A stretch of 64,000 nucleotides of DNA from Candidatus Freyarchaeum deiterrae (GTDB lineage Archaea > Asgardarchaeota > Jordiarchaeia > Jordiarchaeales > Jordiarchaeaceae), in NCBI GenBank assembly GCA_037305845.1, contig CP147778.1, positions 1,856,001-1,920,000 on the forward strand, written 5' to 3'. The notes below the pieces were generated by a model. The model worked only from the letters and a program-made list of their open reading frames with translations, was not told the origin of the DNA and made no database searches. Both the position numbers and the translations under genes were made by a program. Each line of letters starts with the position of its first letter. Position 1 is the first letter of the stretch. Positions 7,490 through 56,020 of this stretch are shown here, piece after piece.

Positions 7490-8639
7490 ATGTGGAAACT
7501 AATTCGCCCTGATGCGTATAGAGTTTGGAATGATAGTATTGTTCGAGAAAGGCTTTGGAGATACTACGAGGTATTTAATAACAGACTCAACGCCAAGTTT
7601 TTAATTGCTTTGAAAGTGGGTGCAGATGTGGAACTAGATGCTGAATCGGGTAAGCTCTGGAGTGTACACGATAAAACTAGTGGCATATTCAGAGGCCTCT
7701 TGAAACGTGTTGACACAGGTGAAGTAAAATTAGATGATATGGACTCACCGAAGATTTCTTATTTAGATCTAAAGGTTGAACTTGCCCGTAGAATTCTATC
7801 CGAGTGCCATTTCTGTGAAAGGCGGTGCGGAGCTAACAGATTAGAGGACAAGAAAGGATTTTGTAAATTAGGAAGCGCGTCTTATGTATCCACGGCTTTC
7901 TTGCACACTGGTGAGGAAGCTCCCTTAGTTCCATCCGGCACAAACGCTTAATGAGCATTGCTCTAGCGGTGCATTCTTCTTCTCCAGTTGCACGTTTAAA
8001 TGTGTATTTTGTCAGAACTACGATATTTCAACAAATCCGAAAAGCGGTATTGAAACTTCAGGAGAAAGTCTTGCACGAATAAGTAGAGACTTGAGAAGAG
8101 AGGGTGCAAGAAATGTAAATTATGTGGGCGGGGAGCCAACACCCAATACTTACAACATTTTAAAAGGTATCAGGGAAACCAAAACAAACGTTGCTCAACT
8201 ATGGAATTCTAACATGTACTGCTCTAAAGAATGCATGAAACTTCTGCTAGATGTTATGGATTTTTGGCTTCCAGACTTTAAATATGGAAACGACCAGTGC
8301 GCCGAAAGATTAAGCAAAGTTTCGAATTATTGGGAAATCGTCTCCAGAAACCATAAGATGGCTTACGATGAAACCGTAGAAACCGGAGCGTCAGGTATGA
8401 TCATAAGACACCTAGTTTTACCAAGTCATATCGAATGCTGTACCAAACCGGTTCTTGAGTGGATAGCTAAAAACTGCCCAAAGGCTTTGGTTAATATCAT
8501 GGAACAATATCATCCTACACATGAAGTATCAGGAAACAAGGAGTTCATGGACATAGATAGAAAAGTCACTCATGAAGAGATGGAAGAGGCGTACAGGACC
8601 GCTGATGAATTGGGAATTATCTGGCAACCTGTATCTTAA
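7490..8639 (+). CDS. PflX-like radical SAM protein, spliced: join(7490..7943,7975..8639), 372 aa
   Basis: After removing a 31-nt BHB intron it reads HTGEEAPLVPSGT-I-FFSSCTFKCVFCQNYDIS (CxxxCxxC), then VGGEPTP and LPDFKYGN. Confidence 0.88.
7944..7974 (+). other. 31-nt BHB intron in the PflX-like gene
   Basis: GCAC-AA^A ... GTGC-AT^T; inner stems CGCT/AGCG and GAGC/GCTC; removal repairs the frameshift and stop. Confidence 0.88.
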
Positions 8640-8884
8640 TAGAGTTAAGTTATCTACAATTCTCAACCCACATCCCTAAATTGAGACAATACATTGAAAT
8701 CATGTTCCGTAAATATTATCTTCGGATTATATTGTCTTAATACATTTTTTAAACGTCTTAGATAAAAATAAAAAGTGTTGACTAGATAATTATAGTTTTG
8801 TTTTAAATGCTGTTTTAAATTTTGAAAGGGTAGATTTTTATCGAGTTTAGATTAAATTGATGCTTAGAGAAGAGTTGATAAATA

Positions 8885-9769
8885 TTGCTTGAAAAAACAG
8901 TAATACCCGGTCCTAGCTCACAGCTCTTGGGACTACGCCTCGCAAGGTGTTTAAAGTCAAGCGTGGTTCCTATAGAGTTTAAGACTTTCCCAGATGGAGA
9001 AAGATACATTCGGATAAAGGAAGAACCAAAGAATGGTCATGCTGTTGTAGTTCAGTCTACGATACCGCCTGATCCCAATCAATGTATAATTGAACTTTGT
9101 TTCATACTTGAAACTCTTAAGGAAATAGGTTTGGAGAAAATCACTGCAGTGATTCCCTATTTCGCTTACGCCCGCCAAGACAAAAAATTTCTACCTGGCG
9201 AGGCCGTAAGTGGAAAGATAATTTGCGATATCATACAGAACGCTGGGGCTGATGAAGTAATAACTGTGGATATTCATAGCAAAAGAATTTTAGAAAATTT
9301 CAAAATTCCCATAAGAGATGTTAGTGCAGTTCCTCTGCTTGGGGAATACTTGAACAATTTTAAACTAACTAACCCCTTAATTATTTCCCCAGATGAGGGA
9401 GCGATTGAAAGGGCTAGAACTCTTGCGGTTTTCATGGATGCTGAATACGTTACGTTTACTAAATCCCGGGATAAGCACACAGGTGAAATTGAAATATTGA
9501 TTAAAGAAATCGATGTTGCTAATCGCGATGTAGTTATAATAGATGACATTATCAGTACTGGCGGAACTATGGCGAGTGCGGTTGAAATCGCTAAGAGTCA
9601 GGGAGCTGCTCGAGTTTATGCAGCATGTACTCATGCTGTTTTGGTGGGTGATTCCAGATTTAAAATTCTTAACGCAGGGGCGAATGAGATAATCGGAACT
9701 GACACAGTTCCCAGCGATGTGAGTTTCGTATCTGCGGCTCCTATTATTGCTGAGGCGCTAAAAGAGTGA
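8885..9769 (+). CDS. prs: Ribose-phosphate pyrophosphokinase
   Basis: FPDGE, PYFAYARQDK, IIDDIISTGGT. Confidence 0.96.
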   Translation: MLEKTVIPGPSSQLLGLRLARCLKSSVVPIEFKTFPDGERYIRIKEEPKNGHAVVVQSTIPPDPNQCIIELCFILETLKEIGLEKITAVIPYFAYARQDKKFLPGEAVSGKIICDIIQNAGADEVITVDIHSKRILENFKIPIRDVSAVPLLGEYLNNFKLTNPLIISPDEGAIERARTLAVFMDAEYVTFTKSRDKHTGEIEILIKEIDVANRDVVIIDDIISTGGTMASAVEIAKSQGAARVYAACTHAVLVGDSRFKILNAGANEIIGTDTVPSDVSFVSAAPIIAEALKE

Positions 9770-10812
9770 GACAAGACCAATTTTATATTTTGTCAGGAGA
9801 GAATCCCACTATTCCAAGCGCTGAATGCCTAGCAATTCTTGAAAGCCTCAATATACCCTACAAAGCAGAAAAATATGAACAGGTGCTAATTTTAAACTCA
9901 GAGGAGGAAAGCTGCCAACGAATAGCTGAGCGGGCTGCAATGGTTCACAATTGTTGTATTTTACTAACTAAAAGTGAAGCAAACATTGACCAGATAATGG
10001 GGTCTGTTCGAGAAATAGATTTTCAAAAACACATTTCTAACGATGATACCTTCGCCGTGAGAATAAAGCACATAAGTAACTATTCACAGGAATTAAGTTC
10101 AACTCTCCTTGAAAAAGAAATTGGAAACATAATCCATAAAAGTGTAGGAGCAAAAGCGAATCTCAGAAACCCCGATAAATTACTTTATGGGGTCCTAACA
10201 GAGAATGTTTTCATATTTGGAAAGAACGTTCGAAGATCCGAAAGGAAAACACTGGGTTTAAGAAAAGCCAAGTTTAGACCCTTTTTTATTCCCAGTTCTA
10301 TGAACCCCCCTCTTGCTAGAGCAATGGTTAATCTGTCTAGAGCTCGCCCCAAAGGTATTTTTTACGATCCATTTTGTGGAGCTGGAGGACTTCTAATCGA
10401 AGCCGGACTTATGGGATGTAAACTCATAGGTTCAGACATCGATATAAAAATGGTTTTAGGAACGGAAAAGAACCTCAAACATTTCAACTTAGAAGATTGG
10501 AATATACTTCAATCAGATGCCAAAAACTTGACTATAAACAAAGCTAATAGTATAGCGACAGATCCACCTTACGGAGGAGCTGCCTCCACTAAGGGTATCC
10601 GCCGCGAAAAACTAATTGCGGGTTTCATAGAAGAAATAGCCGGCATATCTAGTTCAGTTGGATACATATGTATGGGTGCGCCCTCCACAATAGACTTGGA
10701 AGAACTTGTTAAAGAAGCAGGTTTACAGACAGTAGAAAAACATTTAGTACGAGCACACAAGAGTTTAACCCGCCAAATTATAGTATTAAGAAAGCCAACT
10801 TCTGACAGCTGA
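9766..10812 (+). CDS. trm11: tRNA (guanine10-N2) methyltransferase, THUMP + MTase
   Basis: RPFF.PSSMNP.LARAMVNL, DPFCGAGG, TDPPYG. Confidence 0.88.
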   Translation: MRQDQFYILSGENPTIPSAECLAILESLNIPYKAEKYEQVLILNSEEESCQRIAERAAMVHNCCILLTKSEANIDQIMGSVREIDFQKHISNDDTFAVRIKHISNYSQELSSTLLEKEIGNIIHKSVGAKANLRNPDKLLYGVLTENVFIFGKNVRRSERKTLGLRKAKFRPFFIPSSMNPPLARAMVNLSRARPKGIFYDPFCGAGGLLIEAGLMGCKLIGSDIDIKMVLGTEKNLKHFNLEDWNILQSDAKNLTINKANSIATDPPYGGAASTKGIRREKLIAGFIEEIAGISSSVGYICMGAPSTIDLEELVKEAGLQTVEKHLVRAHKSLTRQIIVLRKPTSDS

Positions 10813-10876
10813 AGACAAATATTTAAACAAAAAGACATTTTTTCCTACAAATGAAATAAACTTCTCGTATAGGAAT

Positions 10877-11791
10877 GTGAAAGAATTGCTGAGAGTCATT
10901 ATCCTGGGAACCTCAGGGGGAATTCCTACCGTTGAAAGAAATCTCCCAGCGATAGCTGTAAAGATAAGCAAGGAAATCATTCTGTTTGATTGTGCTGAGG
11001 GAACACAGAGACAGATGGAAAAGGCAAAGCTGAGTGTGGGCAGGATTAATAAAATTTTTGTTACACATCTTCATGGAGACCACATAATGGGAATTCCTGG
11101 AATACTGCAAACACTTTCACTTCAAAACAGAAAAACGCCTCTTCATATTTTCGGTCCGGAAGGTACTGGGGCTTTTATTAAAGCTATAAAAACTACCGTA
11201 AATTTTACTCTCACGTTTGACGTTTATATCAAAGAGATCTCTGAAGGAATAATATTTGAAGGGAGTGATTACTACATCAATTGTGTTAGAACCGAGCACA
11301 CCGATAACTCCTTTGCCTTCGCTTTCATTGAAAAAGATAGACCCGGGAAATTTTACCCAGAAAAGGCTAGCACTCTTCAGATACCAATGGGGCCGCTATG
11401 GAGAAAATTACAATACTGGCAAGCAGTCACACTACCCGACGGAAGAACAATAGAACCCGGTGAAGTGGCGGATCCTCCAAGACCAGGAAGAAAAATTGTG
11501 TATACAGGAGACACCGCTCCGTGTGATTCTGTTGTACAAATAAGCAAAGGCTCCACTCTCTTAATACATGAGAGTACTTTCGGCGATGACTTGGAAGAAA
11601 AGGCTGTGGAAACAAAGCATTCCACGGCAGCACAAGCTGCGAAGGTGGCTAAAGAGGCTGGCGTCGAAAAACTGGTTTTAACACATATAAGTTCAAGATA
11701 CCCAAACCCGAATGAATTGTATGAACAAGCCAAAAAAATTTTTGAAAACACTAAAGTTGCAAAGGATCTGATGGAGATAGTTTTTAATTAG
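10877..11791 (+). CDS. rnz: Ribonuclease Z
   Basis: THLHGDH, exosite GP motif, YTGDT, HESTF, LTHISSRY. Confidence 0.96.
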   Translation: MKELLRVIILGTSGGIPTVERNLPAIAVKISKEIILFDCAEGTQRQMEKAKLSVGRINKIFVTHLHGDHIMGIPGILQTLSLQNRKTPLHIFGPEGTGAFIKAIKTTVNFTLTFDVYIKEISEGIIFEGSDYYINCVRTEHTDNSFAFAFIEKDRPGKFYPEKASTLQIPMGPLWRKLQYWQAVTLPDGRTIEPGEVADPPRPGRKIVYTGDTAPCDSVVQISKGSTLLIHESTFGDDLEEKAVETKHSTAAQAAKVAKEAGVEKLVLTHISSRYPNPNELYEQAKKIFENTKVAKDLMEIVFN

Positions 11792-11898
11792 CGATACAGA
11801 AAAATATTATGAAAAATTTTGTTTATCAGCGATTTTAATAATACCTGCTGTCAGAAGTATCTTCTTAGTTTTATGCGGCTCACTAGGTCTTCTTCCTT

Positions 11899-12330
11899 TT
11901 AGCTGTCTATGGGAGGTTCTCGCTCTAGCGGTCTTCCCTCTACTGTTTTTGGGGAGAGCCAGTCAACTAATTCTTCTATGTTGCTGCTTCTGATACTTAT
12001 TTTTATAGAGCCCATCGGGGATTCTGCTTCTGGGTGGCTGAAGTGAATTTTACCCATGAAGGCGGCCTGCTTATGAAGGTAAAAAGTTACAGTGTCCCCG
12101 ATTACGCCTCTTCTTATGATTTTTCTTGCGGATTCAACTATGAGTTGATCTCTTAGGCGCTGGTATATTTTCGAAACCCCCTCCAGTCCTTGAGCTTTGC
12201 CGTGAAGAATATTTTGTCCATCTTTTTCTGAAAGTGAGTAGTCTATATCCACGATTGCTTTTAGGGCTTTTTCTACCTTCTCTCTACTCTCGGTGGGGTA
12301 TACGGGGGCTTCGATTTCTAGTTCTATCAT
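11899..12330 (-). CDS. UPF0201/COG1931 putative RNA-binding protein
   Basis: VYPTESREKV.KA, LHKQAAF.G, SPMGSI, WLSPKT. Confidence 0.85.
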   Translation of the reverse strand: MIELEIEAPVYPTESREKVEKALKAIVDIDYSLSEKDGQNILHGKAQGLEGVSKIYQRLRDQLIVESARKIIRRGVIGDTVTFYLHKQAAFMGKIHFSHPEAESPMGSIKISIRSSNIEELVDWLSPKTVEGRPLEREPPIDS

Positions 12331-12875
12331 TTTATTATCTTCCCCAGAATTGTTCGCATTTTTTCAATTAATTCATCCTCACATCCTTCGTTTACAATTA
12401 GGTAATCCGCTAGGGCCATTGCTGATCTGATTCCAAAATTTGTCTCTCTAGCGTCTCTTTCTTGAAAAGTTTTGATATCCAGTGAATCATCAGAGCGTTC
12501 ACGTTCGCATAGACGTTTGAAGCGTGTTTCGGGTGATGCCTGAATAGCAACTAAAGTGAAATCAGGATAATGCTTTTTGAATAATTCTATCTCCTCGAGG
12601 CTCCTGATCCCTTCAACCAAGACAATACGAGATTTTTCTTTTTCGATTTTGGGTAAGGTCCTATTTGCCACAGCTTGCGATCCTTCCTCTTCGCGTAAGC
12701 CCTTTGATACCTTGCCCAAATTTTCTGGTGTTTCCTCTAAACCTCTTAATTTTACTTCCTCCCGAACTACGTCCCCCATCGATACTACTGGTATACCTCT
12801 ATCTTTTGCTGCATTAACTGCCAGTGATTTGCCGGAGCCGGGCATGCCGACAAACGCTATGATTTTCTTCTTCAA
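12327..12875 (-). CDS. Archaeal dephospho-CoA kinase-like P-loop kinase (UPF0200)
   Basis: GMPGSGKS, SMGDVVREE, EGIRS, RDARE..FG. Confidence 0.82.
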   Translation of the reverse strand: MKKKIIAFVGMPGSGKSLAVNAAKDRGIPVVSMGDVVREEVKLRGLEETPENLGKVSKGLREEEGSQAVANRTLPKIEKEKSRIVLVEGIRSLEEIELFKKHYPDFTLVAIQASPETRFKRLCERERSDDSLDIKTFQERDARETNFGIRSAMALADYLIVNEGCEDELIEKMRTILGKIIK

Positions 12876-12959
12876 AACCTACACCCATTAGTCCGCAGAA
12901 AATAAATTTTTGGCAAGTTTTGGAGATCAAAAATAATTTGGATTGTTTATGTTTCTGTT

Positions 12960-14081
12960 TTAGGTGAACATTTTTGGTTTTTCTTTTGATTGTTTCTCGT
13001 TGAGTAGCTTAAGCGTTATCTCTATTATTTCTTGTGTTACACTGCCCTTATCTTGCAGAATTGCTTTGTGGAGAGCTGCTTTTAGAAGTTTTTCTTTAAG
13101 GTCTCTACCGGAGAAGCCTTCTGTGTTCATAACTATTTTTTTAATATCGGCTTTTACTGGTAATGGCATTTTCGATATGTAGAGTTTGAGGATTTGTTCC
13201 CGTTCTTCGGTACTAGGCAGTTTGAATTCGATCTCCTCTTCAAATCTGCTTTTTACAGCCTTATCTAAGGCGGTGGGGTTATTTGTGGCTCCAATGCATA
13301 CTACACCTAGGTTAGCGCTTAGTCCGTCCAATTCCCCTAGGAGTGCGTTGACTATCTCTGATACGTCACCTCTAATATTCTGAAAGCTACGGTCCAGTCC
13401 TATAGCATCGATTTCATCTAGGTATATAATGCTAGGCGTGTTGTCTGAGGCTATTTTGAAAATTTGGTGCACTCTTCTAGAGGCGTCTCCCACATTAGCT
13501 CCGATTAAATCAGTGGATTTAATCAAATAAAACGGTGAATTTGTTTCATTGGCTAGAGCCTGAGCCAGCATGGTTTTCCCCGTGCCCGGGGGACCATAGA
13601 ATAGAATGTTTTTTGGCGCCCATTCTCCGAAAGCCTCTGGGTTTTCTAAATACTTCTTGATTATTAGACACTTGTTTTTCGCTTCATTCTGTCCTATAAC
13701 ATCTGGGAAATGAACTTTCAGCCTTTTCTCCTCTGTTAATGGCTTCCTTTTCAGGATGAAACGGGTGGAAAGGTTTATTCTTCCCTGTTTTGGCTGCGCA
13801 TCAGTTACTTTAAAAGCAAAATCAGGGAAAACCAGTTGGTCGAACAGGTAGTCTCCTTTCTTAACATAAATTCCCGCCCATTGTTCTCGGGCGTAGGCTT
13901 GAAACAGTTCAATATCATCTGTTAGTAAGGCGATGGGGGAATCTTCTCCAGCGAGGCGAAAAGGATAACCTGATGGCTGGAGCTCCAAAACTGAAAGGGA
14001 TTGAATGCGGCTTTTCTTTTTTGCATGCTCCTCTCGTAAGGAGGTAGGCAGATGTATAATTTTCTCACTATTTTCTCTCAA
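12960..14081 (-). CDS. Archaeal AAA+ ATPase (COG1223-like)
   Basis: YAREQW N-domain, FGEWAPKNILFYGPPGTGKT, YLDEIDAI, SRFEEEIEF. Confidence 0.88.
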   Translation of the reverse strand: MRENSEKIIHLPTSLREEHAKKKSRIQSLSVLELQPSGYPFRLAGEDSPIALLTDDIELFQAYAREQWAGIYVKKGDYLFDQLVFPDFAFKVTDAQPKQGRINLSTRFILKRKPLTEEKRLKVHFPDVIGQNEAKNKCLIIKKYLENPEAFGEWAPKNILFYGPPGTGKTMLAQALANETNSPFYLIKSTDLIGANVGDASRRVHQIFKIASDNTPSIIYLDEIDAIGLDRSFQNIRGDVSEIVNALLGELDGLSANLGVVCIGATNNPTALDKAVKSRFEEEIEFKLPSTEEREQILKLYISKMPLPVKADIKKIVMNTEGFSGRDLKEKLLKAALHKAILQDKGSVTQEIIEITLKLLNEKQSKEKPKMFT

Positions 14082-14140
14082 AAATCTTTCACCCTACCGC
14101 TTGTGACATCTTTATAACCGTTTCAGAGTTCCTTTTAGAA

Positions 14141-15451
14141 TTATACCTCATTGAATTGCATAATTTTTAGATTTACGGGTTTCTTTGTAATGTTTTCCTG
14201 TCGCACACCTAAAATGTATTCCGCACCTTTTTCTTGGGATATGTCCACTAACCTCTGAGTTATTATGCCGTCAAGAATAATGGCTTTCACCGAGTTCATT
14301 TCTTTCAGACTCTCTGCCAGTGAAGATACTTCTATTTCTTTGATTAACTCGAAGTTCTCCCCCAAAAGTACAGCTTTATTAGAAGAGGGAATACCTGACA
14401 AATGGCTCAAAATTTGCTCAGGAAGTTTAGGTTTCGGAGGGGCTTCCACCTTTTTATATCTCTTTACCTCTTTTTCTCTTTCTTTTCCCTTTTCTTTTTC
14501 CTTCTCTTTTTCTTTTTCTCTTTCTTTTCCCTTTTCTTTTTCCTTCTCTTTTTCTTTTTCTCTTTCTTTTCCCTTTTCTTTTTCCTTCTCTTTTTCTCTT
14601 TCCCTTTCCTTCTTTTTAGGTTCTTCTGATTCTTCTTGTTCTATAGGCAGTTTATTTCTTAATGCTTTAACCACTTCTTTTTGGCTGAGCTCTTCGACTT
14701 CTCTGCCTGGAGGGGCACGAGCTATGTAAGCTATGTCCGCTATTTGTTGGAGTTCTTTTAGAATCAAGTCTCCTCCCCTATCTCCATCTAGAAATGCTGT
14801 AATTGATTTTTTCTTACTGAGCTCAGTTACAGTCTTTGGTACACTCGTACCTTCAACTGCTACCACGTTCTTATAACCACATCTCAAAAGATTAAGAACA
14901 TCAGCTCTTCCCTCTACAATTATTATGTCATCAGAGGCATCAATACTCGGTCCAGCAGGCAGCTCTTCAGGACCGTATTTCTCGATTTCAGCGACTCGAA
15001 CAGCGTCCATAACCTCATCAGTGATCTGTTGGCTTTCAGGTGACACGTCTTCGGACCATTTTCGAATAATATCCGCCGCTCTTTCTACAATCTTCTTCCT
15101 TTTAACCTCACGAACATCTTCGATTATCTCTAGAGTTGCATGAGCTGTACAGGGTCCGACTCTATCCACGGTTTCCAGCGCAGCAGCTAACATCGCTGTC
15201 TCCACTTTATCCAAACTTGAGGGAATTATCACCGTTCCAGTTGATTTACCCGCTTTTGATTCTATGGTCACTCTTATTCTGCCTATCCGACCCGTTCTCT
15301 GAAGCTCACGTAGATCAAGCTCAGCTCCCAATAAACCTTCAGTCTGTCCAAAAACAGCTCCAACCACATCTGGTTTTTCAACCACACCGTCTACATCTAC
15401 TTTAGCTTTTATAATATATTTTGTCGTGCTAAATTCATTCTTATTAACCAT
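14141..15451 (-). CDS. dnaG: Archaeal DnaG-like primase / exosome-associated protein
   Basis: [32 protein letters not shown] and DGDRGG. Confidence 0.95.
14471..14596. repeat. Three perfect 42-bp tandem copies encoding a Lys/Glu linker in DnaG
   Basis: Unit tttttctctttcttttcccttttctttttccttctctttttc at 14471, 14513 and 14555. Confidence 0.9.
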
Positions 15452-15626
15452 GTAAGCGTCACTTCCATTAAGTAAGTTAAGAAATGAAATGTGAAATGAA
15501 TGTAAGATTCAATTAATAATCCTGAATTTCAAAGCTCCTCAAATACCAATATGCATACACATACTGTTAACATTAACGATACTTTCGGGATAATTATGCT
15601 TTTCTCTTTTGAACTACGAAAAGGGT

Positions 15627-16040
15627 TTACCAGTCGATACTAACGTTTTTCCATGATTGGTTTTGGAGATTAAGATATGAAGAAGCTAACCCTTCAATAT
15701 CACAGGTGATTTTCGAGACTAAATTTTGGAATCTTCTTCTGAAACTCCGCGTTAAATCAACCTTTCGGCAATCTAAGTAACGAGAGAGACGCAAAGCCAA
15801 TACTCGTCCTTCACGGTCAAAGTCTGTTAAAATCAAGAAGTTTTCAAACTGCGCCAGCTCTTCTGCAACTTTTAAAAGATTTTTTCCAGACAGCCTAATA
15901 ATCTGCCCGCTAACTCCTAATGTTCGCAAACTTCTCTCATCTTTGAGACCCTCTACGACAATGGGGATACCGCTATCAGAGAATATCTTCAGCATGGAAA
16001 TTAACTGATCCAATTCGTCAAAGAAACTATTAATAAACAT
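15627..16040 (-). CDS. Small TOPRIM-domain protein (RNase M5/primase-like); start uncertain
   Basis: IVVEGLKDERSLRTLG, ILTDFDREG, DIEGL. Confidence 0.8.
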   Translation of the reverse strand: MFINSFFDELDQLISMLKIFSDSGIPIVVEGLKDERSLRTLGVSGQIIRLSGKNLLKVAEELAQFENFLILTDFDREGRVLALRLSRYLDCRKVDLTRSFRRRFQNLVSKITCDIEGLASSYLNLQNQSWKNVSIDW

Positions 16041-16165
16041 ACTCAACCATCCACGTGAACAAGGAAAAACTAATAATGGTAAACTCTCTAAGCACCAGAT
16101 ATAAGTGGAACAAAATAAATTTTTCTTATTTTTAAAGCAATCGGTACCATGTATAACAGAGATTA

Positions 16166-17296
16166 TCACCGTGTTACTATTGCCTTTTTTAAGGCTTCAA
16201 GAAGGTCGTGTGCTTCATTGTTTTCTTCAAAATGCCTCCTAACATTTTCCAATAGATTAATGAGCGCCTCCGCAGTGGCTTGCTTCAAATCCATGGGATG
16301 AAGATTACCACCAGCATAAGCTGATTTCAATTCGTCAAAACTCGTAAAGTCCACAGGCCCTCCGAATTTCTCCTTACGTTCCACATGAAGCTTAGAACCA
16401 TCTCTCGAAAGAAGGAGAAGCCTATTTATCTCGATTATCGGATTAAACTCCAACTGTTTCGGTGGGCAAAAAGCCGCTCCAATCTTCGCCCTTATATCCT
16501 CCGGCGTATCATGGATAAAAACAGCGGTCTGAGGCTTAGATTTCGACATCTTAGCCTCCATTAAAGCATCCTCATCCTCCTCCTCTCCCCCCTTTTTAAC
16601 ATCCATTCGTGATAAGCCCTGCAAACCAATCAGAAGAGGTGTATGAATAGCCACAGGCTTCCAATCCAAACCCAACTTGGGAGCCAACTCCCTAGCAAGT
16701 ACATGAGCCCTCCTCTGATCAGTTCCCCCCAAACACAACTTAAAACCAGAATACAAAATATCAGCAACCTGAATACAAGGATAAAGCGTTTTAGAATAAT
16801 CAGACTCCGCCTCATCCACCTTACGGCCCATAATACTCATAGCCCTCTTAACACGAGCAAGAGTAATATTCTTAGCAACATTAATCACCGTCCCCCAATA
16901 ATCCAAATCATCCATAAGATCCTCTGCTCTCTCAAACTGAACCCTCCCAGTATCTATACCCAGCGACTCCAAACAGTGCTCAATGTACCTCGCACACATG
17001 TGAATAGTATCCATGTCTCCACCAAACTTGTCATTAATCTTAGCATGCCAAGTTGCCTCGAGAACATGCACATCAGCATCAGCCAGAACCAAATCCTGAA
17101 GCTTCCAAGCCCAAACCACCCAACCTATATGAAATATTCTGGAACCATTAGGACAACTAAAGGCTTATCCAGAAGGCTCAACACCAATATAGGCTTTAGG
17201 ATGGCTTTCAACCTCAAACAAACTCTGCAAATCCTCAACCGTAACAACCTCATCCAAGCCACGCGAAACCATCTGAACCTTTTCCTCAGTATCCAT
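16166..17296 (-). CDS. tyrS: Tyrosine-tRNA ligase, spliced: complement(join(16166..17136,17167..17296)), 366 aa
   Basis: YIGVEPSG-L-FHIGW restored by removing a 30-nt BHB intron; YPCIQVADI, GGTDQRRAH, KMSKS; GGAGG upstream of ATG 17296. Confidence 0.93.
17137..17166 (-). other. 30-nt BHB intron in tyrS
   Basis: mRNA sense CTGG-AT^A-AGCC...GGTT-CCAG-AA^T; creates an in-frame TAA if unspliced. Confidence 0.9.
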
Positions 17297-17563
17297 CAGT
17301 AATTCCTCCAAATCAATATTTAATATAACCAAAACGCAAACATCATCAACAACAACGCACAATCAAATATCTGCAAAAAATAATAATAAAACCGTAATTA
17401 AAACTTTCCCAAAGTAAGTACAAACATCGAAAAATAGAAACCCAAAGTTAAACCCTCCACAAATATTCCAAAACAACGCATTTTTTTTCAATTCAATTAT
17501 AATTCAAAATTTCGTGGTGTTCAAATACCATTTTTTAAAGAAAATAGAATGAGATGATATAAA

Positions 17564-17905
17564 TTGGATCCATACTGGTTTATGTACGACCCCCTCACCC
17601 AAAGCCTGCTCAATATCATCTTCGGAATAGTCCTAATAGTCGGAATAGGTCTACTCGTCATGAACATAGTAAAACTGGCAACCTCTCACCAACGCATGGG
17701 ACCCACCATAGGTCTGATTCTAAGCTTACTCATCATCGGACTATCAGCCTCATGGCAATCCGTCCTACCCATAATCGCACAAACCATGGGAGGAGTGGTA
17801 CAATACCTCTCAATCTACCTCTACACACTCATCTACCAATGGATAGCACAACACACAACCACAACAACCGCCACAGCACTCCTACTACTACCACTACTAC
17901 TATAA
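17564..17905 (+). CDS. Small multi-pass membrane protein of unknown function
   Basis: 113-aa ORF with about 3-4 hydrophobic segments. Confidence 0.55.
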   Translation: MDPYWFMYDPLTQSLLNIIFGIVLIVGIGLLVMNIVKLATSHQRMGPTIGLILSLLIIGLSASWQSVLPIIAQTMGGVVQYLSIYLYTLIYQWIAQHTTTTTATALLLLPLLL

Positions 17906-17996
17906 TCAAAAACCAACGCAAAGCTAGCGATGGAAAATAACCGGTTCTCTATCCTAATAAAATAAAAAAGCGTTAAATTCATGAATATCCCAAAAG

Positions 17997-18064
17997 CCTA
18001 AAAAACACAAACAGAGCAAAGCAAAAAAACCACCAACAAACAGTAAATAAAAATAGTAAAATCA
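17997..18064. repeat. 68-bp imperfect direct repeat, copy 1
   Basis: cctaaaaaacacaaacaga.caaagcaaaaa...aacaaaca.taaataaaaa.agtaaaatca matches 19884-19951. Confidence 0.8.
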
Positions 18065-18439
18065 AATAATGCAACGAAAAACCCACACCATCCTCAAATA
18101 CACACCTCATTCTTTATCCCGCTCTTCCACAGAGAAAAAACCAAACAAAAGAGTATAAACCCCAGCTTGCATAATCCCCCAATTCACACAAGCTCTCCTT
18201 ACCCCCAACAAAAAAGAATCCGATAAAACAAAAAGAGAAAAGCCAATAACTAATAATTCAAACTTCCCATCCCTGTCACTATTATCGAACCCATCAACCA
18301 CCACAGAGAAATAAAAGAGACAAAAAACAATATATCAACCCGTTATACTTCTCCACATTCCCTCCCATCAAGCAAAACAAGACATAAAAAAATTTATAAG
18401 ACGCCTCATCGCCCTAAACAAAAGAGAGGCGGAAAAAGG

Positions 18440-19816
18440 ATGAAACTCCCAAAAGAAAATACAAACAATAAAAAGTCGAAAGCAGGGACACCACCCGCAC
18501 CACCGACATCACCCGCGGCAGGGACACCACCCGCACCACCGACACCCCTCGAAGGAAATCTAACCTTCGAAGCAAAGACACCCCCCGCAGCAACGCCAAC
18601 CCCCGAAGCAAAATCAATAATGGACGGTTATTCCGAAGAAGATAAAAAGTTAATAGAATTAATAATAGAAGTATATTCCCAAAATTTTATAGAAAAATTT
18701 CCTAAAAGAAAGAAGGAGGAGGAGGAGAGGGAGAAGAAGAAGTTAACGGAGGAGGAGAAGGAGGAGGCGAAGGGGAAGATCGAAACACTATTACTTATAT
18801 TGAGAGAGGAGGAGGAAGAGCAGGAGAAGAAGCAGAAGGAAAAGGAGGAGGAGAGGGAGAAAAAGAAGTTAACGAAGAAGCAGAAGGAGGAGGAGAAGCA
18901 GAAGGAGAAGGAGAAGGAGGAGGAAATGAAATCTCCACTGCGTGGACTTGCTTTGCTCTTTTTAGACTACGAAAAAGTCGAAAAGAAATATTTGCCCAAA
19001 CAAGAAAAAATAGAAGAAATAACGGGTAAAGGGGGACAAGAGGGGAAAGATCTCTATGAGTATATAAAAAATGAAATTTATGGAATCACAATTCATAAAC
19101 TAATATTAAAAATTTATGATCAGCGTCTCGAGAGAGTAACTGAAAGAAAGGAAAGAATCAATAAGAAATTGGACGAAATGGAAGACAAGAGTTACGGTTG
19201 GGTTGCTAAAAATTCCAAGAGATTATTTTGGATCGGTGTAGCTATTGTTTTTTCATCTATACTTATACCCTTAGGAGTTTGGATTTTATCCTCTTGGACA
19301 TTTTGGCAATTACTTAGTACTATTCCAGTATACGCACTAATTGCAACATCCACATCAACACCAGCAATATACACAACATTACCTGCAATAATCACATCAT
19401 TACCCTGGCAACAATTAAATAACACATCCCTAATCTCAGGAGGAATAGGCGGAACAGTAGGCCTAAGCACTATAATTACAACCTTGATTAAAGGAGCATT
19501 CCAAGAAATAAAGAGCGCCTCATTAGACAGAGTCCAAGTTACACTACTCCAAGATGCGTATCGTGACAAAATCAGGAAGATAACAATACAACTAGAACGA
19601 GATCTATACGATATAGTTGAAGAGAATCCGGCAAAGAAGAAAACGGAAGAGGAGAAAAACAATCAATGGAAGTATTTCTTTGATGTGGAAAAAAAATTTT
19701 ATCAAGATGAAGCTCAAATATATGAAGAATTAGCAAACGATCTACAAAAATACGTCGAAGGCATTATAAAAACCGAAAAGAGTAACAACAAAGATAGTAA
19801 CAACCAAAAAGAGTAG
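18440..19816 (+). CDS. Hypothetical membrane protein with Pro/Thr and Glu/Lys low-complexity repeats
   Basis: 458-aa ORF, AGTPPAPPT x2, KEEEREKKKLT x2, 2-3 TM segments; GAGGCGG upstream. Confidence 0.6.
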   Translation: MKLPKENTNNKKSKAGTPPAPPTSPAAGTPPAPPTPLEGNLTFEAKTPPAATPTPEAKSIMDGYSEEDKKLIELIIEVYSQNFIEKFPKRKKEEEEREKKKLTEEEKEEAKGKIETLLLILREEEEEQEKKQKEKEEEREKKKLTKKQKEEEKQKEKEKEEEMKSPLRGLALLFLDYEKVEKKYLPKQEKIEEITGKGGQEGKDLYEYIKNEIYGITIHKLILKIYDQRLERVTERKERINKKLDEMEDKSYGWVAKNSKRLFWIGVAIVFSSILIPLGVWILSSWTFWQLLSTIPVYALIATSTSTPAIYTTLPAIITSLPWQQLNNTSLISGGIGGTVGLSTIITTLIKGAFQEIKSASLDRVQVTLLQDAYRDKIRKITIQLERDLYDIVEENPAKKKTEEEKNNQWKYFFDVEKKFYQDEAQIYEELANDLQKYVEGIIKTEKSNNKDSNNQKE

Positions 19817-19883
19817 TAACAACGCAAATAATAGCAAAAAAGAGAACAGACAGAGAAACAAAATACACGCTCAACAACCAAAC

Positions 19884-19951
19884 CCTAAAAAACACAAACA
19901 GAACAAAGCAAAAACACCAACAACAAACAATAAATAAAAACAGTAAAATCA
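19884..19951. repeat. 68-bp imperfect direct repeat, copy 2 (T-rich on minus strand, just downstream of ahcY)
   Basis: Matches 17997-18064. Confidence 0.8.
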
Positions 19952-19984
19952 TGAAACACTGAAACCAAAGAAAAAGGGTTAGGC

Positions 19985-21601
19985 TCAGGTACCCTCAGCC
20001 CAACCATGAATATACGCATCCTGCTCTGGAGTCAGAACATCCAACTTAAGACCCATAGCCGCGCACTTTAATTGAGCCACAGTATTATCAATCGCTTCGG
20101 GAATATCCAAAACAACACTGCCCATCTTAGACAAAGACTCCCTGTTCTTGACAATATACTCTACCGCCAAAGCTTGGTCTGAGAAGCTCATGTCCATAAC
20201 CTTACCAGCCACATGCATAGTAAAAACTCCCAAAGGTGTTGGTTTATTGTGGGATGACATTTTTTGATTTGACTCAGTATCCCTCTGCTTAACACTTCTA
20301 CATAATGGTGTTAAGGGAGAACTAGAAATACTGGTCCACAATCCGCCACCACAGCAAGTTCACACATCTAGAAGTTTTAATTAAACATGTGGTCACTGGG
20401 GTGCCCCTCTGCACAAGCTAGATTCACAAGTCTGCCTTGTCCGAGTAGGTAAATTTTTCTTCCGTCTTTCATTGTGTATTCGTCGACTAGTGGTCTCAAC
20501 TCTCGTTTGCTGACACTGAGTTTCTCTAGGTCCGGTATGTTTATTTCGACATTGAAGTGCCCAGTGTTACAAATTGTCGCCCCGTTTTTGAACTTCTTCA
20601 TATGCTCTGCGTTAACCACGTTTTTACAGCCCGTAGCTGTGACGAAGATGTCGCCTACCTCAGCGGCTTCTATCATGGGCATCACATCGAATCCCTCAAG
20701 TGCAGCCGTTAGCGCTCTGTGTGGGCTAATCTCGCAGATGATAACTCTTCTGGCGCCTAGTCCCTTGGCTCTTATCGCTACGCCTCTACCGCAATGACCA
20801 AAACCAGCGACTACAAAAACTTTACCTGCTATAAGATCCGCTGTTGCTCTTAGTATGCCGTCGATGGTGCTTTGTCCGGTTCCCCACAGGTTATCAAATT
20901 TGGGCGCAAACACTTCAGCGTTTACGTTTCCCATTTTGTGGGGGTGTCGTTAGTGGCTAAAATCGGATAGAGTAATACATTATCTTTGGCCATAGCCCTC
21001 AACCGAACAATTCCGGCCATATGTTTAATAAAAACTCTCAGGGGCATTAATGATTTAACATATGGATTCCGGTCGTGGTTTCTTCGGCTCCGGCCCATAC
21101 GGTGTCTGCCCAGTCTTTTTTTTCTCCTAGGATTTTTTTGACTATTTTTATTTCTTCTCCTGTTTCTCCTCTTTTCAGTTTGATGAGTGTTGATACCAGG
21201 TCGGCGCCGTCGTCCAGAGTAATGTTGGGTTTCGCTTTGATTACGTTGGCTATTGCTCTGTAGTAGCCTTCGTGGTCCATTCCTTTCCAGCCGTAGGTGG
21301 ATATGCCTTCTTTTACCAGAGCTGCGACGACGTGGTCCTGTGTTGATAGTGGATTAGAAGCGCATAGGTAGACCTCAGCGCCGCCTGCTTTCAGGGTTTT
21401 CGCGAGCACCGCGGTCTCCTTGGTTAAGTGGAGGCATGCTCCCACTTTCACGTTTTTGAGTGGTTTCTCTTTGGTGAATCTTTGTTTTACTTGCATGAGT
21501 ACCGGCATGTGTGCTTCTGCCCATTCTATTGTGCTCTGTCCGCTTGGCGCCAATTTCATGTCTTTGACTTCGTATTTTTCTCCTTTTTCTGTTTGTGACA
21601 T
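19985..21601 (-). CDS. ahcY: S-adenosylhomocysteine hydrolase, four exons: complement(join(19985..20202,20394..20898,20928..21010,21067..21601)), 446 aa
   Basis: Spliced product has [75 protein letters not shown]; exons total 1341 nt. Confidence 0.93.
20203..20393 (-). other. 191-nt BHB intron 3 of ahcY
   Basis: CCAG-TG^A-CCACATG...CATGTGG-CTGG-TA^A; restores GHPSEVMD. Confidence 0.88.
20899..20927 (-). other. 29-nt BHB intron 2 of ahcY
   Basis: TGGG-AA^A-CGTAAACGC-TGAA-GTGTTTGCG-CCCA-AA^T; restores KWEFDN. Confidence 0.9.
21011..21066 (-). other. 56-nt BHB intron 1 of ahcY
   Basis: CCGG-AA^T-CCATATGTT...AACATATGG-CCGG-AA^T; restores ETTTGIVRL. Confidence 0.9.
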
Positions 21602-21720
21602 TGTTTTTTTCACTCCTTTGTGGGGTGTTTTGTCTTTCTTTTATGGGTTTAGTCTTATAAAAGTTATATATTTGGGTGTGGATAGTTTGCACATGGATAG
21701 GCGTATTTTGTGTGGTTTTT

Positions 21721-33196: not shown

Positions 33197-36100
33197 TTAC
33201 TGTCTTCGTAATAATGTTTCATGTATTCTGGTCAGGGTGTCTGGGTAGAAGACTCTCATGAGAATTAGGACTACTACCAGTAACCCGAATATAATAGTAA
33301 CTATTCTGCTCAGGGTGTCCATGTCAAATTGACCGCTAGCTGCATTTGCTGTGAGCAGTGACAAGATTGGAATGGGTGACGGTGGCGTTGGGGTAACTAC
33401 TTGGACTGTGAAACTTTCATTAAAGCTTCTACCAGCGTTGTCGGTCACATTTAGGGTGATATTTAGATTGCCGAGAGAACTCGGAGTTATCGGAAGCTCC
33501 GCAATCCCCGTATTATTGTTGTAGAATACTGTTGCATCATGGGATTCGCCATTTAAAAACACTGTTAGATTGGTTAAGTTAACCTGTGGAGTACTTGAAG
33601 CGTTGAAAGGTAGATATCTTACCCATATCTGCAAATTAAACGGTATTCCTAGAGTTAATGTTTCGTTAAGTGTAACATCTGGTTCTATTAGTCCCGCTTC
33701 TAATTGGTACACGTTGAATATGTAATAGTTCTGTGCTAGTGCCTGGTTGCCTATCCCCCTTATCATAATGTTATTACTTGAGTTCGTTGTAACTGATGCA
33801 ATGTATTCCCCAATATCTTGGGGGGTGAAATTTACGTTCCAGTTCTGGAAATCGGTTGTGTTTCCTGAATAATTAAACATCGTGCCGTTGGGGTTGATTA
33901 TGGTTACGGTCAAATTACTTGGGTTATCCAGTACATTTGTAATATTTAACGTGACTGATGTGCCCTTATAGGGCACGATGGTTGATGTAACATTCACTTG
34001 GGAGTAGAAGGTTATTGTAGTGTTCATTGTTTCTCCATTAGAAAGTTCTTGTCCTATGCTTGTAGAGTTGAAGGCGTTTTTGAGTATTGTTATCGTCTTG
34101 GTTATCGAATTTGTAAATGCCTCAGTCCAATTATCTGAAAGAAGGGTGCTGTTGAGAAATATTGTGTTAGCAGCGCTTTGGTTCGCTGCTGGATTATAGC
34201 TGACATACTCAGATTCCTGCGATAAGGAAATAGTCGCATTACTATGCGTATATATACTGGTGAATGTAGAGCCCGAGAATGTGGATGTGTTTGTATAAAC
34301 CATTTGAGCATTAATGGATGCGTTTAAACTGGTGCTGTTCCAATCCTGACTGGTTTGGTTCCAAGCCTTAAAAATTAGCGTAGCTACACCTGTGCTACTG
34401 TTGTATCCCACTTGACTGCTGGTGAAGATTTGACTCCAGTAACCTTGAGTACTGTTAACCATAGAGATATCGTTAATATAAAATAATGTATGGTTACTCA
34501 AGCCGTCACTGTAGTTATAGTAAAATAAATTGTAAGTTAGACTGTATTGGATATCCTTACTACTCGCCAGATTAAAGGTAACGATGCTTCCTGAGGCGTT
34601 TTGTATCGGGGTCCAAACAGTATCATTCCATACCCGATTACCGCCAACGAGTTTATTATTAACGGAGATATTGATACCACTCGTATCTGTCGAATTATAA
34701 GATGTAATCTGCATACACTGCCAGTATCTGTGACCGAACGGGTCTCGGACATCCTTCCAGTTCCAATTGCTAGAATTATCAGGGGTGGTCCATATTCCAT
34801 AGCCCTCTGGCGGAGGAATCTCAAATGCACTAGTATGGCTCGCCCAATCATAAAACTGACCGCTACTCGGATCTCCCGTCCAGTTTTTTGTATGAATTAC
34901 TAGGAAGTAATTTCCTTGTGAGAAATGACCTGTAAAGTTAAGAGTAAGCAAATTATAAGTTGAATTTACGTTCTGGTAAGGCACTTCCAAAGCGACACCA
35001 GTAACATTGCTGCTTAAATTATAAGCCCCAATTGATGAATCGAATGTAGCATTCCAAATCTCGGCAGTGAGGTTTTGCGTTAAACCTGTGGTGCGTAGTA
35101 TCAGTATCTGAATTGTGAGATTGTTCGAGTCATCCGGCAATGTGAACCTTTGAGCTTGGCTCACATTTCCAACGGTGTGTGCGAAGCCGTCTGAATTAGT
35201 TACGTTCTCAATAACGTGTAACTGTGAAACCGGAGTTATACTAGTAAAGTTGATGACGGCAAGATACATCCGATCCCCGTTAGGAATGATGACGTTGAAG
35301 CTACCTGTACCCCCTGTAATATTTCCAGTGGTGCTGCCTGCAATATTATAGTTAATATTACCTGTGTTATTAAAGACATCCACTGAGAGCTGATTCAAAG
35401 TCCAATTCGCTGGGAGCTGCAATGTCAATGTATACTGAAGCTTTGTTAAATTCATTATCATCCAGCAATTGAATGCAACTGAACTTTGAGACCAAAGATT
35501 GGTATCATTTATTTGTTCTATATCTGTGAAATTTTTCAGGTTGAGTGCTAATCCTCCGCTATTAGGAGTACATCCCCAAGTATAATATGTAGTATTGTCG
35601 CTTGAAGTACTAGTATTTAATCTTACCAATATGAAATAAGTCTGGCTTGGGTTCAGCTTAATGGTAGTTTCATTAAGTAGAGTAACCCAATTTCCACTGG
35701 CATTAAAACTGCTATTTGAGTACGTTTGACTTAGCAGAATAGCATCTGATGCGTTACTTGGCACCCACATCGAACCAATCAGGGTTCCATTCCTCAGCTC
35801 TACCCTAAAATCTGGAGGAGACGTATTATTATAGCCTATCCATAGTTGAACACCATTAAAGTATGTTGTAACATTTGAGGTGCTAAATGGCATGGCTACA
35901 GAACTGTTCAAGTTATCGTTCCAAGATATATTGAGATTATTTTCTGGCGGCCCGGTGAGATTACCTTCTATAGTATCCGAGGCCGTTTTATTTGTGATTT
36001 GAAACCATGTTACATTGTAATATGCTCCATTTATTTGGATTGTGGGGTCATTTGTAGTGCCTTTCAGTTGAGGGGGATTCATTTTTTGGCCTGCGGTTAG

Positions 36101-37496: not shown

Positions 37497-38231
37497 TTAG
37501 TGCGTGAGTCCCGGGAAGTAGTATCTTTCTCCGTGGGCGTAGCTTTCGTCTTTTCTGGTTATACCTTCCTGCTCTAAGGCTTGGAGTGCGTTCTGTGCTC
37601 TGACCTTTGTCCAACCTGATTTTAGCATTACTTCTTCGAGGGTTGTAAATCCGTCTCTGCTCGCTATGCTTAGCACTTCATTTTGGTCTTCGGTGAATTC
37701 TACTGGGAAGAAGCTTATTATTTTCACGCCGGATTTCAGTTCGTGTACTCCGGGTATGAGTTTGTTTTTCTTGAGTATTTTTACTGCGTTTTCTATGTCA
37801 TGGGTTTCCAGTTTCTGGGCGAGTTTTCCGGTGTTTGCTAGTAGGTATGCTTCACTGTAGGTCATTATTCCGCCGTTTTCCTTGCGTTTGAGCATTGCTC
37901 TCTGGTAGAGTAGCATTCCTAGTTTTTCGTGGTCTATTTTTGTCCCTATCCCCATGGTTCCTTTTTTGAGTACTTCTTCTTCCGACATTACGTGGGTTAT
38001 TATCGCTTCTTTCGGTATTCCATATTGTTTTCTTATTCTTTCAACCTCATCTTGAAGCTGGGGACTGGTGGCGATAATGACTCCGTATTTTCTAGCAAGC
38101 TCTTCTAGCTTCTCTTTTGTTTCGGTTGCGGTTTCCAAGTCGTTTCTGATTTCCTCTAGTTTAAACTCAGTGGCCTTTTTTTGTACGTATCTTTTTTTTT
38201 CCATTTTATCGCGTAATTCATGTATTCCCAT
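37497..38231 (-). CDS. ESCRT-II Vps22/Vps36-like (EAP30 domain) protein
   Basis: MGIHEL N-terminus, ENGGIM, DIENAVKIL, P.EFTEDQNEVL, GWTKVRAQNAL..L..EG...D......YYFPGL. Confidence 0.85.
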   Translation of the reverse strand: MGIHELRDKMEKKRYVQKKATEFKLEEIRNDLETATETKEKLEELARKYGVIIATSPQLQDEVERIRKQYGIPKEAIITHVMSEEEVLKKGTMGIGTKIDHEKLGMLLYQRAMLKRKENGGIMTYSEAYLLANTGKLAQKLETHDIENAVKILKKNKLIPGVHELKSGVKIISFFPVEFTEDQNEVLSIASRDGFTTLEEVMLKSGWTKVRAQNALQALEQEGITRKDESYAHGERYYFPGLTH

Positions 38232-38253
38232 TTTTCCGACTCCCTTTATCTAT

Positions 38254-38928
38254 CTATAACTGCCTTAGTCTTTGACGGAAGTCTTTGAACCACCTTACAG
38301 AATCATACTCTATTTTTTTAGCATCTTCCGAATCGATTACTAGATCTGGGGGTTCGTCTTTGAGTTTGTCACGCCAAGCGGTTATTTCCTGATAAACCCA
38401 GTAGTTTTTGTCATGAAGTCCTGTAAAATTTTCTAGGAGAAGTATTACATCGTCCATTATTGGCACTATGTTATCGACCCTAGCATAGTCCCCTAACTGT
38501 ACACAGTCAATTAGAGTAATGAAATTTGATACCAGGTCAGCAGTTTCGGTGGCGAGCTTTGCTGGAGAGAATTTGAGGATTTCTAAAGGTATCTCTTCCT
38601 CCGGCCTCATGGCCGTTTCGTCCAATTTTATAATTCTTAACTTCACCGCTGCATCGGGATAATTCTCTATGATTTTTTCTTTCTCTATAAACTGGGCGAG
38701 GTCAAACCCTCTCTCCTCAAGATTTTTGCGTACCTCGAGAATTTTTTGGATGTACGCTCTCATTTGGAGACTGTAGGTGGCGGCGTCAATTAAACCGCCA
38801 TTGTAATTTTTGCCCAACATATCCAGCGTTGCAATACAAGAATATAGCTCCGCTTCTAATTCCAATTGTTTATCCACGTCACTTTCTGATTGCTTTGCAC
38901 TAGGTTTCGGTTTTTCTGCTATCTTCAT
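38254..38928 (-). CDS. vps28: ESCRT-I Vps28-like protein
   Basis: AELYSCIATLDML.K.Y..G.I....Y, NFITLID, helical C-terminal domain. Confidence 0.82.
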   Translation of the reverse strand: MKIAEKPKPSAKQSESDVDKQLELEAELYSCIATLDMLGKNYNGGLIDAATYSLQMRAYIQKILEVRKNLEERGFDLAQFIEKEKIIENYPDAAVKLRIIKLDETAMRPEEEIPLEILKFSPAKLATETADLVSNFITLIDCVQLGDYARVDNIVPIMDDVILLLENFTGLHDKNYWVYQEITAWRDKLKDEPPDLVIDSEDAKKIEYDSVRWFKDFRQRLRQL

Positions 38929-38956
38929 TTTTTTATCCTCCTGTCCCTTGGACTAC

Positions 38957-39754
38957 TTACTTTGCCTGAAGTTTCTCCAGCTTCTTGTTTACTATGTATA
39001 ATTGTTTCTTATACCTCTTATACAGCTTAGTATAATCAGTTGGGCCTACTTCTCCACCTTCAAACTTCTCTTCCAGTGTTCTGATCAAATCCTCAATAGC
39101 TATCTTTTCACTTTCAACATCCAAAACTTCTCGATATACGGGATCCTCCGGGAGCAGGTCGGATTGCGGATGCTCGTCCGCCGCTTCTGGTACATTGTGA
39201 GCGGATAATCTGCCACGGAGCATTGCTATTTCCTCATCACGCTCTTGAAGCGTGCTTTTAAGTTTCTTAGTTTCACTTTCCATACCCGAAAGTTGCGAGG
39301 ATGCCTCTGAACCAACCTCTTCTCCTTCTTGTGTCTTCTCCTCTTTGTCTACTATTGTTACCGTTACTCTAGGCGCCTCTTTCTCCACTTTAACCCGTCT
39401 TGTGGCTGGGCTTGGAGGTATCCTTGCAAAAGCGCCCTTTAGTGTATTTACTACGTGGTACAAGTGGTACTCTGGTCTCCACTGGTCTAGGATGTTCAAC
39501 TTCACTCTTCCGGTTTCAATGTCTACGTTAGGATGCTCGGTAGGAGAAATCATACGAACTTGAGGGGGGTCAATAGGAAATGTGGGTGGGATTTTGATTT
39601 CCACCTCGAATTTGAGTCCTCTAAATTCGCCTCTACCCGCTATTTCACCTATCCAACGGGTTAGATCGCCTTTAACAGGTTCAAAGCCTCGGGTCCTCTG
39701 ATACATTAATTGAGTTTCCCGTGCAAGAGTTAATTCAAAATTGCTGCTGGACAA
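38957..39754 (-). CDS. ESCRT-I Vps23/TSG101-like protein (UEV + coiled coil + steadiness box)
   Basis: UBC fold FPIDPP...HPNVD..TGRVKLNIL with Lys at the catalytic Cys position; C-terminal AIEDLIRTL......G......Y.K.Y. Confidence 0.82.
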   Translation of the reverse strand: MSSSNFELTLARETQLMYQRTRGFEPVKGDLTRWIGEIAGRGEFRGLKFEVEIKIPPTFPIDPPQVRMISPTEHPNVDIETGRVKLNILDQWRPEYHLYHVVNTLKGAFARIPPSPATRRVKVEKEAPRVTVTIVDKEEKTQEGEEVGSEASSQLSGMESETKKLKSTLQERDEEIAMLRGRLSAHNVPEAADEHPQSDLLPEDPVYREVLDVESEKIAIEDLIRTLEEKFEGGEVGPTDYTKLYKRYKKQLYIVNKKLEKLQAK

Positions 39755-52883: not shown

Positions 52884-53090
52884 ATTAATTCACCACAAAA
52901 CAATCGAAGAATCAAGCACTAAACTTTACACTTAATTAGTTCGCGTATCAAAAGAAATTATCCCTTCCTATATCTGAGTTATCCGTCTATTTATTTCTCC
53001 CTCTTAAGAAGATTTTTTATTTCTCCCTTAATATAAAACTATGGTATTGATTGATACAAATAAGCTACCAAATCAAATGTTACATAAAAA

Positions 53091-53798: not shown

Positions 53799-53945
53799 CT
53801 GAAACAAGCCCTCAAATAATATTAAAACAAGAAATCAAGTTACCTCTACTTAAGTCCTCTCCTTATGAGAAGACTTTAAATTGTTTATTCTCCCTTGATT
53901 ACATAATAAGTCAGAAATAAACTAACACCACGGGAGGTTCAACCT

Positions 53946-54191: not shown

Positions 54192-54299
54192 AAATACTTA
54201 ACTTGTCCTATTTCTCTGATTAAAAATTCTCTAGCGGCTTTTGATGAGTCGCAAGAACTTATTTTAACTATTACTAATGTTTCTCTGGGAGGTTCGTAA

Positions 54300-54779: not shown

Positions 54780-54830
54780 AAAATTAGCTTTCAATAAATT
54801 TTTGGATAAAAATTCGATTGGGGTTTTGAT

Positions 54831-55982: not shown

Positions 55983-56020
55983 ATGAGTTCTAGTGAAGCT
56001 TAATGCTTCAATTTCTAAAT

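Follow-up and report, generated by a model that had tools for sequence, protein, structure and literature searches.

The 64,000-nucleotide window analyzed here (positions 1,856,001 to 1,920,000 of contig CP147778.1 of the Asgard archaeon Candidatus Freyarchaeum deiterrae) contains three single-copy housekeeping genes that are interrupted by short inserts: a pflX-like radical SAM gene, tyrS, and ahcY. The five inserts are in all likelihood protein-spliced mRNA introns of the bulge-helix-bulge (BHB) type, which would be cut by an EndA-type endonuclease and joined by a ligase. Judged from their sequence, the mRNAs of all three genes very probably need splicing. Two of the three ahcY introns are best explained as insertions of a miniature inverted-repeat transposable element (MITE), a feature that was missed when this DNA was first annotated.

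Structure, products, and conservation of the five inserts

The features of the three genes are as follows, in window coordinates.

7490-7943, plus strand: pflX-like radical SAM gene, exon 1
7944-7974, plus strand: pflX intron, 31 nucleotides (nt), helix GCAC/GTGC
7975-8639, plus strand: pflX exon 2, radical SAM domain, with the CxxxCxxC motif directly past the junction
17167-17296, minus strand: tyrS exon 1
17137-17166, minus strand: tyrS intron, 30 nt, helix CTGG/CCAG, with an in-frame TAA, located where the HIGH-motif region begins
16166-17136, minus strand: tyrS exon 2
21067-21601, minus strand: ahcY exon 1
21011-21066, minus strand: ahcY intron 1, 56 nt, apparently a 49-bp MITE with an internal deletion (21017-21065), followed by one copy of the target duplication
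21066-21072, minus strand: ahcY intron 1, first copy of the 7-bp target-site duplication, CCGGAAT, made up of the palindromic helix CCGG and the bulge AAT
21010-21016, minus strand: ahcY intron 1, second copy, 7 bp, perfect
20928-21010, minus strand: ahcY exon 2, 83 nt
20899-20927, minus strand: ahcY intron 2, 29 nt, helix TGGG/CCCA
20394-20898, minus strand: ahcY exon 3
20203-20393, minus strand: ahcY intron 3, 191 nt, apparently a full-length 184-bp MITE (20209-20392) plus 7 nt, helix CCAG/CTGG
19985-20202, minus strand: ahcY exon 4

A geometric scan that was given the EndA cut rule alone recovered all five inserts, and the lengths of 31, 30, 56, 29, and 191 nt and the junction peptides listed in the initial annotation were all reproduced. 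Each insert contains the structure that had been described for it, a central helix of 4 bp flanked by one 3-nt bulge per strand, and in five of five inserts all four pairs are Watson-Crick. The register is unique, as the fit is found at offset 0 alone when shifts of up to 8 nt in either direction are tested. The inner helices measure 4 bp in pflX and tyrS and 9, 9, and 8 bp in ahcY introns 1-3. The gap positions in DNA alignments with intron-less orthologs, made without using the motif, coincide with the inserts. In this genome, a perfect central helix together with four inner pairs has a frequency of 6.4e-5 per position-length pair. Even when the hairpin shape of the inserts is granted and chance is allowed to act on the 4-bp helix alone, finding all five helices would have a probability of ~4e-11, a figure obtained by arithmetic over 1, 1, 8, 3, and 2 equivalent placements for pflX, tyrS, and ahcY introns 1-3.

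Cutting after the second bulge base on each side, as had been proposed, yields predicted PflX-like, TyrRS, and AhcY proteins of 372, 366, and 446 residues that match their orthologs across every junction. The spliced AhcY aligns without gaps to two orthologs of 445-447 residues at 72% identity, and the spliced TyrRS and PflX show 1-4 gap positions. At the junctions, the peptides are the same as in relatives that lack the introns. In the proposed mechanism, the BHB would form in the transcript by pairing between the final bases of the upstream exon and the terminal part of the intron. A two-subunit EndA would then cleave each bulge behind its second base, and RtcB would join the exons to give the full-length proteins.

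The inserts show every BHB-intron feature that was tested except the strict outer helix. Their ends read A/T..AT, AA, or TA and not the GT-AG of spliceosomal introns, and, at 29-191 nt and with no Rfam match in window 19900-21700, they do not resemble group I, group II, or homing-endonuclease introns, which are marked by a ribozyme core or an intron open reading frame (ORF). It is conceivable that splicing is real and relies on another nuclease or on self-splicing RNA, or that the 191-nt insert has been retained for a function as RNA and not as a transposon relic; this insert folds well (z -3.2). We consider this very unlikely, because no Rfam match was found at E values up to 1 (window 19900-21700), a ribozyme could not be accommodated in inserts of 23-31 nt, and the 191-nt insert matches a MITE profile from end to end and occupies a site that is empty in congeners.

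The genome is a single contig of 3,576,204 bases, and each insert recurs without a single base change in 5-6 contigs from separate public runs. As these were assembled independently, the inserts are not assembly errors. Intact intron-less paralogues, which the initial annotation had raised as possible counterevidence, were not encountered: the genome contains no second ahcY or tyrS, and for pflX there is only a pflX-like hit at 24%. The other class Ib synthetase in the genome is presumably TrpRS. Compared with congeners, the sequences on both sides of the breaks are under purifying selection, with nonsynonymous differences (pN) of 0.06-0.12 against synonymous differences (pS) of 0.33-0.78. The frameshifts and stops present at the DNA level are what pseudogenes or assembly artefacts would show. 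That reading is nevertheless close to untenable in view of the identical assemblies, the purifying selection, the missing second copies of tyrS, ahcY, and rtcB, and the occurrence of inserts in several species.

Gene callers annotate the fragments of the broken genes as separate ORFs, and all close TyrRS relatives have been deposited without their first ~45 residues. Such ORF calls, together with the selection on both sides, would fit genes that are split into separately translated pieces which assemble, or whose truncated products suffice. The breaks, however, interrupt conserved motifs, ahcY would have to be made as four pieces, of which one has 28 codons and no start, and the BHB register would be left unexplained; split genes are therefore very improbable.

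In related genomes, the pflX insert is found at the same base in 10 of 10 matching genomes of the order, where it measures 27, 28, or 31 nt, and it is missing from four more distant Asgard genomes. The tyrS insert is present in six of six genomes of the genus (30-31 nt). The same six genomes and one of the sister family contain ahcY intron 2 (23-30 nt), with a stop in every copy. Central helix and bulges are kept in every orthologous copy read, while loop and length drift through all three frames, which is the behavior expected of an untranslated segment that is spliced out. The introns of pflX and tyrS and ahcY intron 2 are thus old and inherited, order-wide for the first and genus-wide or wider for the others. 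Introns 1 and 3 of ahcY are confined to this genome among the 14 aligned. Precisely at the intron 3 site, an unrelated BHB insert of 34 nt occurs in one distant genome, which may be a parallel gain at a favored site or the replacement of an older intron.

The conservation data also bear on ribosomal bypassing or frameshifting of the T4 gene 60 type, in which the ribosome would hop over a stop-containing hairpin and the RNA would remain uncut. Stops do lie close behind several of the 5' junctions, the inserts are hairpins, and intron 1 of ahcY offers matched codons because of its duplication. For pflX and tyrS, in contrast, the placement is single and sequence-exact, with no repeat that could supply matched take-off and landing codons; the exon-intron helix is kept in the EndA register in all orthologs, and orthologous insert lengths fall in all three frames. 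Bypassing accordingly seems a poor explanation with little chance of being correct. Splicing by EndA and RtcB is the one reading that accounts for the exact register, the single-copy genes, the purifying selection, and the conserved helices with free length.

Several observations weigh against splicing. The exon-side outer helix has only 1 bp in pflX and tyrS and 1, 2, and 3 bp in ahcY introns 1-3, so that three of the five inserts are relaxed motifs where the strict form is defined by an outer exon-exon helix of at least 2 bp; in most pflX orthologs this helix has 2 bp. For pflX, the fold of lowest energy is one other than the BHB. Introns 2 and 3 of ahcY fold well below shuffled sequences, and the remaining junctions show no clear difference. 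An ab initio scan of the genome for BHB motifs and coding potential gave 2129 hits against 2014 in its mirror control, without enrichment, so that only homology separates real cases. Finally, a full-length spliced protein of this species was absent from the assembled proteins that were searched, which is weak evidence either way.

A MITE family and the probable origin of ahcY introns 1 and 3

Intron 3 of ahcY is 73% identical to a segment found elsewhere in a congener. The corresponding elements form a non-coding family of 170-207 bp with the terminal inverted repeats CCATATGTTTA, dispersed at 6-25 matches per genome in four congeners. Over 31 copies, the identity between the two flanks is 0.75 at a length of 7 bp compared with 0.32-0.40 at other lengths, and 13 copies are perfect. 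This peak at seven bases identifies the family as a MITE whose target-site duplication is 7 bp long. When the whole genome was searched with a profile of 30 copies, there was one full match, which is ahcY intron 3, from end to end (E 1.8e-14). For intron 1, 23 of 25 bases are identical to a MITE end, at the sole such site in the genome, and the element is flanked by perfect copies of CCGGAAT. Because CCGG is palindromic, the two copies can pair as the central helix and leave an AAT bulge on both strands. Applied to intron 1, the EndA rule takes out 49 + 7 = 56 nt, which leaves the sequence of the empty site.

These features suggest how insertion could create an intron. The MITE would contribute the inner helix through its inverted repeats, and the duplicated 7-mer would provide the 4-bp helix with its 3-nt bulges. 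The 7-mer would have to begin with a 4-bp palindrome, and the cut would then take out the element plus one copy, bringing back the original sequence. Introns 1 and 3 of ahcY are thus probably recent gains, through transposition, from a MITE of ~185 bp.

A further intragenic case is found in the tRNA-Arg(CCT) gene of a congener, where a 187-bp copy lies in the anticodon stem (L290:1501-1687) in the opposite orientation. Its duplication, GCGCAGG, is a palindrome followed by three bases, the same geometry as in ahcY intron 1. Empty sites are available for comparison, in this genome for tRNA-Arg(CCT) and in congeners for ahcY introns 1 and 3. Insertion in either orientation points to DNA transposition, and the reverse splicing of RNA is disfavored as the route of arrival. 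All other copies examined are intergenic, and a palindromic head occurs in 4 of 40 orientation slots, near the expected 1 in 16. The congener tRNA-Arg(CCT) has three BHB introns in all, the MITE copy being the middle one (194 nt with its duplication), and ARAGORN misses the gene until all three are removed.

Four points tell against this origin. The duplication at intron 3 is non-palindromic, its flanking 7-mers being identical at 4 of 7 positions. The rule relating MITE insertion to introns rests on two fresh intragenic copies. No transposase with MITE ends was found in this genome or in the fetched loci, and PF01609 has no match in the genome. Lastly, the duplication signature is missing from most of the 18 introns described below. 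As to the first point, the inverted ends of intron 3 carry a paired change, and intron 3 would appear to be the older insertion, in which the intron-side copy of the 7-mer was later adjusted to pair. Since most introns show no duplication, an origin by duplication was rejected for the set as a whole, and the MITE is regarded as one route.

Viral contigs gave no match to the MITE end pattern. At 34471-34664 of the window, 194 bp are flanked by repeats, but this stretch lies inside an intact ORF and was dismissed as chance. Tandem MITE copies with one shared 7-mer between them occur at L307:1305-1683 and also in L289 and L291. The genome further contains two pairs of 1.4-kb repeats (C1:2434937, 3247879, 2252041, and 2501030), whose ends are unlike those of the MITE and whose ORFs we take to be TnpB-like.

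Splicing enzymes and further putative introns in the genome

Two EndA subunit genes are present in the genome. In one of them, the catalytic subunit, the catalytic motifs are intact; its nearest match is the Aeropyrum-type enzyme (3p1z, E 8e-43), and the alignment runs through the extra loop of that enzyme. The second gene resembles a structural subunit. An EndA of this composition would be expected to accept relaxed motifs. RtcB is encoded by a single gene, and this gene itself contains a 29-nt relaxed BHB insert (C1:1452824-1452796) at the metal-site motif, between the codons for LPD and those for AHQGYG. The insert contains a stop in five of five congeners, where it measures 30 nt, and the helix is perfect in the four that were read. 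If splicing is real, RtcB would be needed for making RtcB.

A motif-free census, with one sister-family proteome as its main reference (the reference sequence came from two relatives, with 1.96 Mb from one and 0.4 Mb from the other), found 10 disruptive inserts of at least 12 nt: five strict BHB motifs, the relaxed one of rtcB, one double insert with a BHB, and three unrelated. The mirror control gave 0. Motif-guided searches added Alba, cbf5 (a 32-nt BHB insert), pcm, ychF, an HD hydrolase, a PorA-like gene, and others. The further BHB inserts, of 20-33 nt, are located at C1:987065, 1125569, 1472189, 1483446, 1500558, 1589381, 1619887, 2174686, 2191720, 2244134, 2285374, and 2636190. The genes at these 12 sites, most of which fall in signature motifs, are those of the HD hydrolase, Alba, gatE, cbf5, a CxxC protein, the PorA-like protein, nadE, a RuBisCO-like protein, ychF, pcm, endoQ, and one unnamed. 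Gene names outside the window are presumptive, having been assigned from recognized motifs.

The consolidated list contains at least 18 introns in ~15 genes, 16 of them strict; it is a lower bound and, being partly motif-found, gives no unbiased rate. The stretch from ahcY to tyrS is unusually dense in introns. The description of mRNA splicing as routine in this lineage is supported by these numbers as far as recurrence is concerned, but the genes affected are a small fraction of the genome. No BHB insert was recovered for moaE, fbp, kae1, and rps26e, for which coordinates or missing reference proteins may be responsible. A candidate insert of 1823 nt elsewhere in the genome contains another gene and no BHB, and was discarded. 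Conserved genes also show in-frame stops without an insert, for example at C1:6227, 968061, 1148280, 1248082, and 1962907; several of these are TGA and probably encode selenocysteine.

Known systems and other features of the window

In eukaryotes, the HAC1/XBP1 mRNA intron is removed by an endonuclease and joined by a tRNA ligase. The likeness to the introns described here lies in these two steps; the difference is that IRE1 cuts at stem-loops and that the reaction is regulated and concerns one gene. Among archaea, the cbf5 pre-mRNA of Desulfurococcales and Sulfolobales contains a BHB intron whose splicing is proven (PMC2738675; reviewed in PMC10485636). Like that intron, those of the present genome are short relaxed BHB introns within coding sequence, in a host with a two-subunit EndA. 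Unlike cbf5, a single gene, they number at least 18, are known here from sequence, occur in unrelated genes including that of the ligase, with several in one gene, and include lineage-specific gains. The initial annotation had cited cbf5 as the documented archaeal case, which is correct as published but incomplete, since the 5' untranslated region of HVO_1309 of Haloferax volcanii has a BHB intron that EndA cuts in vitro (PMC7714728). This is likewise a BHB intron in an mRNA, although it sits in the untranslated leader and leaves the reading frame unbroken. In the mostly non-subscription literature searched, cbf5 and the HVO_1309 leader were the only cases of archaeal mRNA splicing.

The complete genome of Ca. 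Freyarchaeum deiterrae (3.58 Mbp, long-read checked) has been reported as rich in tRNA introns, and metatranscriptomes of the source wetland soil are published (PMC11291895). The tRNA introns of Freyarchaeia and Atabeyarchaeia have been described (PMC11291895; bioRxiv 10.64898/2026.10.13.758758); they share lineage, motif, size range, and presumed enzyme with the introns reported here and differ in being situated in tRNA genes. Term searches of these two sources found no mRNA introns. The latter reports no general route of arrival for Asgard tRNA introns and does not mention MITE, inverted repeat, or target-site.

Introners and the non-conventional introns of euglenids are MITE-like, with inverted ends, target duplications, and exact removal at the RNA level (PMC11282704). 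Introners depend on the spliceosome and on splice-site dinucleotides, whereas the duplication here builds an RNA structure for a tRNA endonuclease; the MITE-born ahcY introns work like Introners but are not Introners in the strict sense. It is likely that we are dealing with an archaeal counterpart: a MITE whose 7-bp duplication matches the 4 + 3 geometry of the BHB, so that palindrome-headed insertions are born exactly removable, whether they land in an mRNA or a tRNA. The Asgard lineage concerned would use tRNA enzymes to splice the mRNAs of many housekeeping genes, the gene of its own ligase among them. A transposon-born route for BHB introns was not found described for archaea in the mostly non-subscription literature searched, where reviews of transposon-born introns cover eukaryotes only.

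If this is true, archaeal mRNA splicing would be more than a one-gene curiosity and would belong to the normal course of gene expression in one Asgard lineage, with multi-exon genes that annotation pipelines fragment. The MITE route would provide a concrete way for BHB introns to arrive, parallel to transposon-driven gain in eukaryotes but with different machinery. The suggested bearing on the origin of eukaryotic introns holds as such a parallel; it is an analogy only, as the inserts are not spliceosomal.

Between ahcY and tyrS, the window contains a 458-residue ORF (18440-19816) with Pro-rich and E/K-rich repeats, a hydrophobic stretch, and no Pfam match. It lies between 72-nt direct repeats that are 92% alike (17993-19951). 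In congeners the two genes are ~0.6-0.8 kb apart, and given this short spacing the segment 17993-19951 looks like an insertion. The DnaG primase gene (14141-15451) contains a long KE/RE low-complexity repeat (~14480-14620). Genes for ESCRT-like (endosomal sorting complex required for transport) proteins (EAP30, UEV/Vps23) and for the ubiquitin system (E1, E2-like, JAMM-like, and RING-like) are located at 37497-39754 and 52209-56593. Together with an SMC gene at 60069-62576, they are typical Asgard content.

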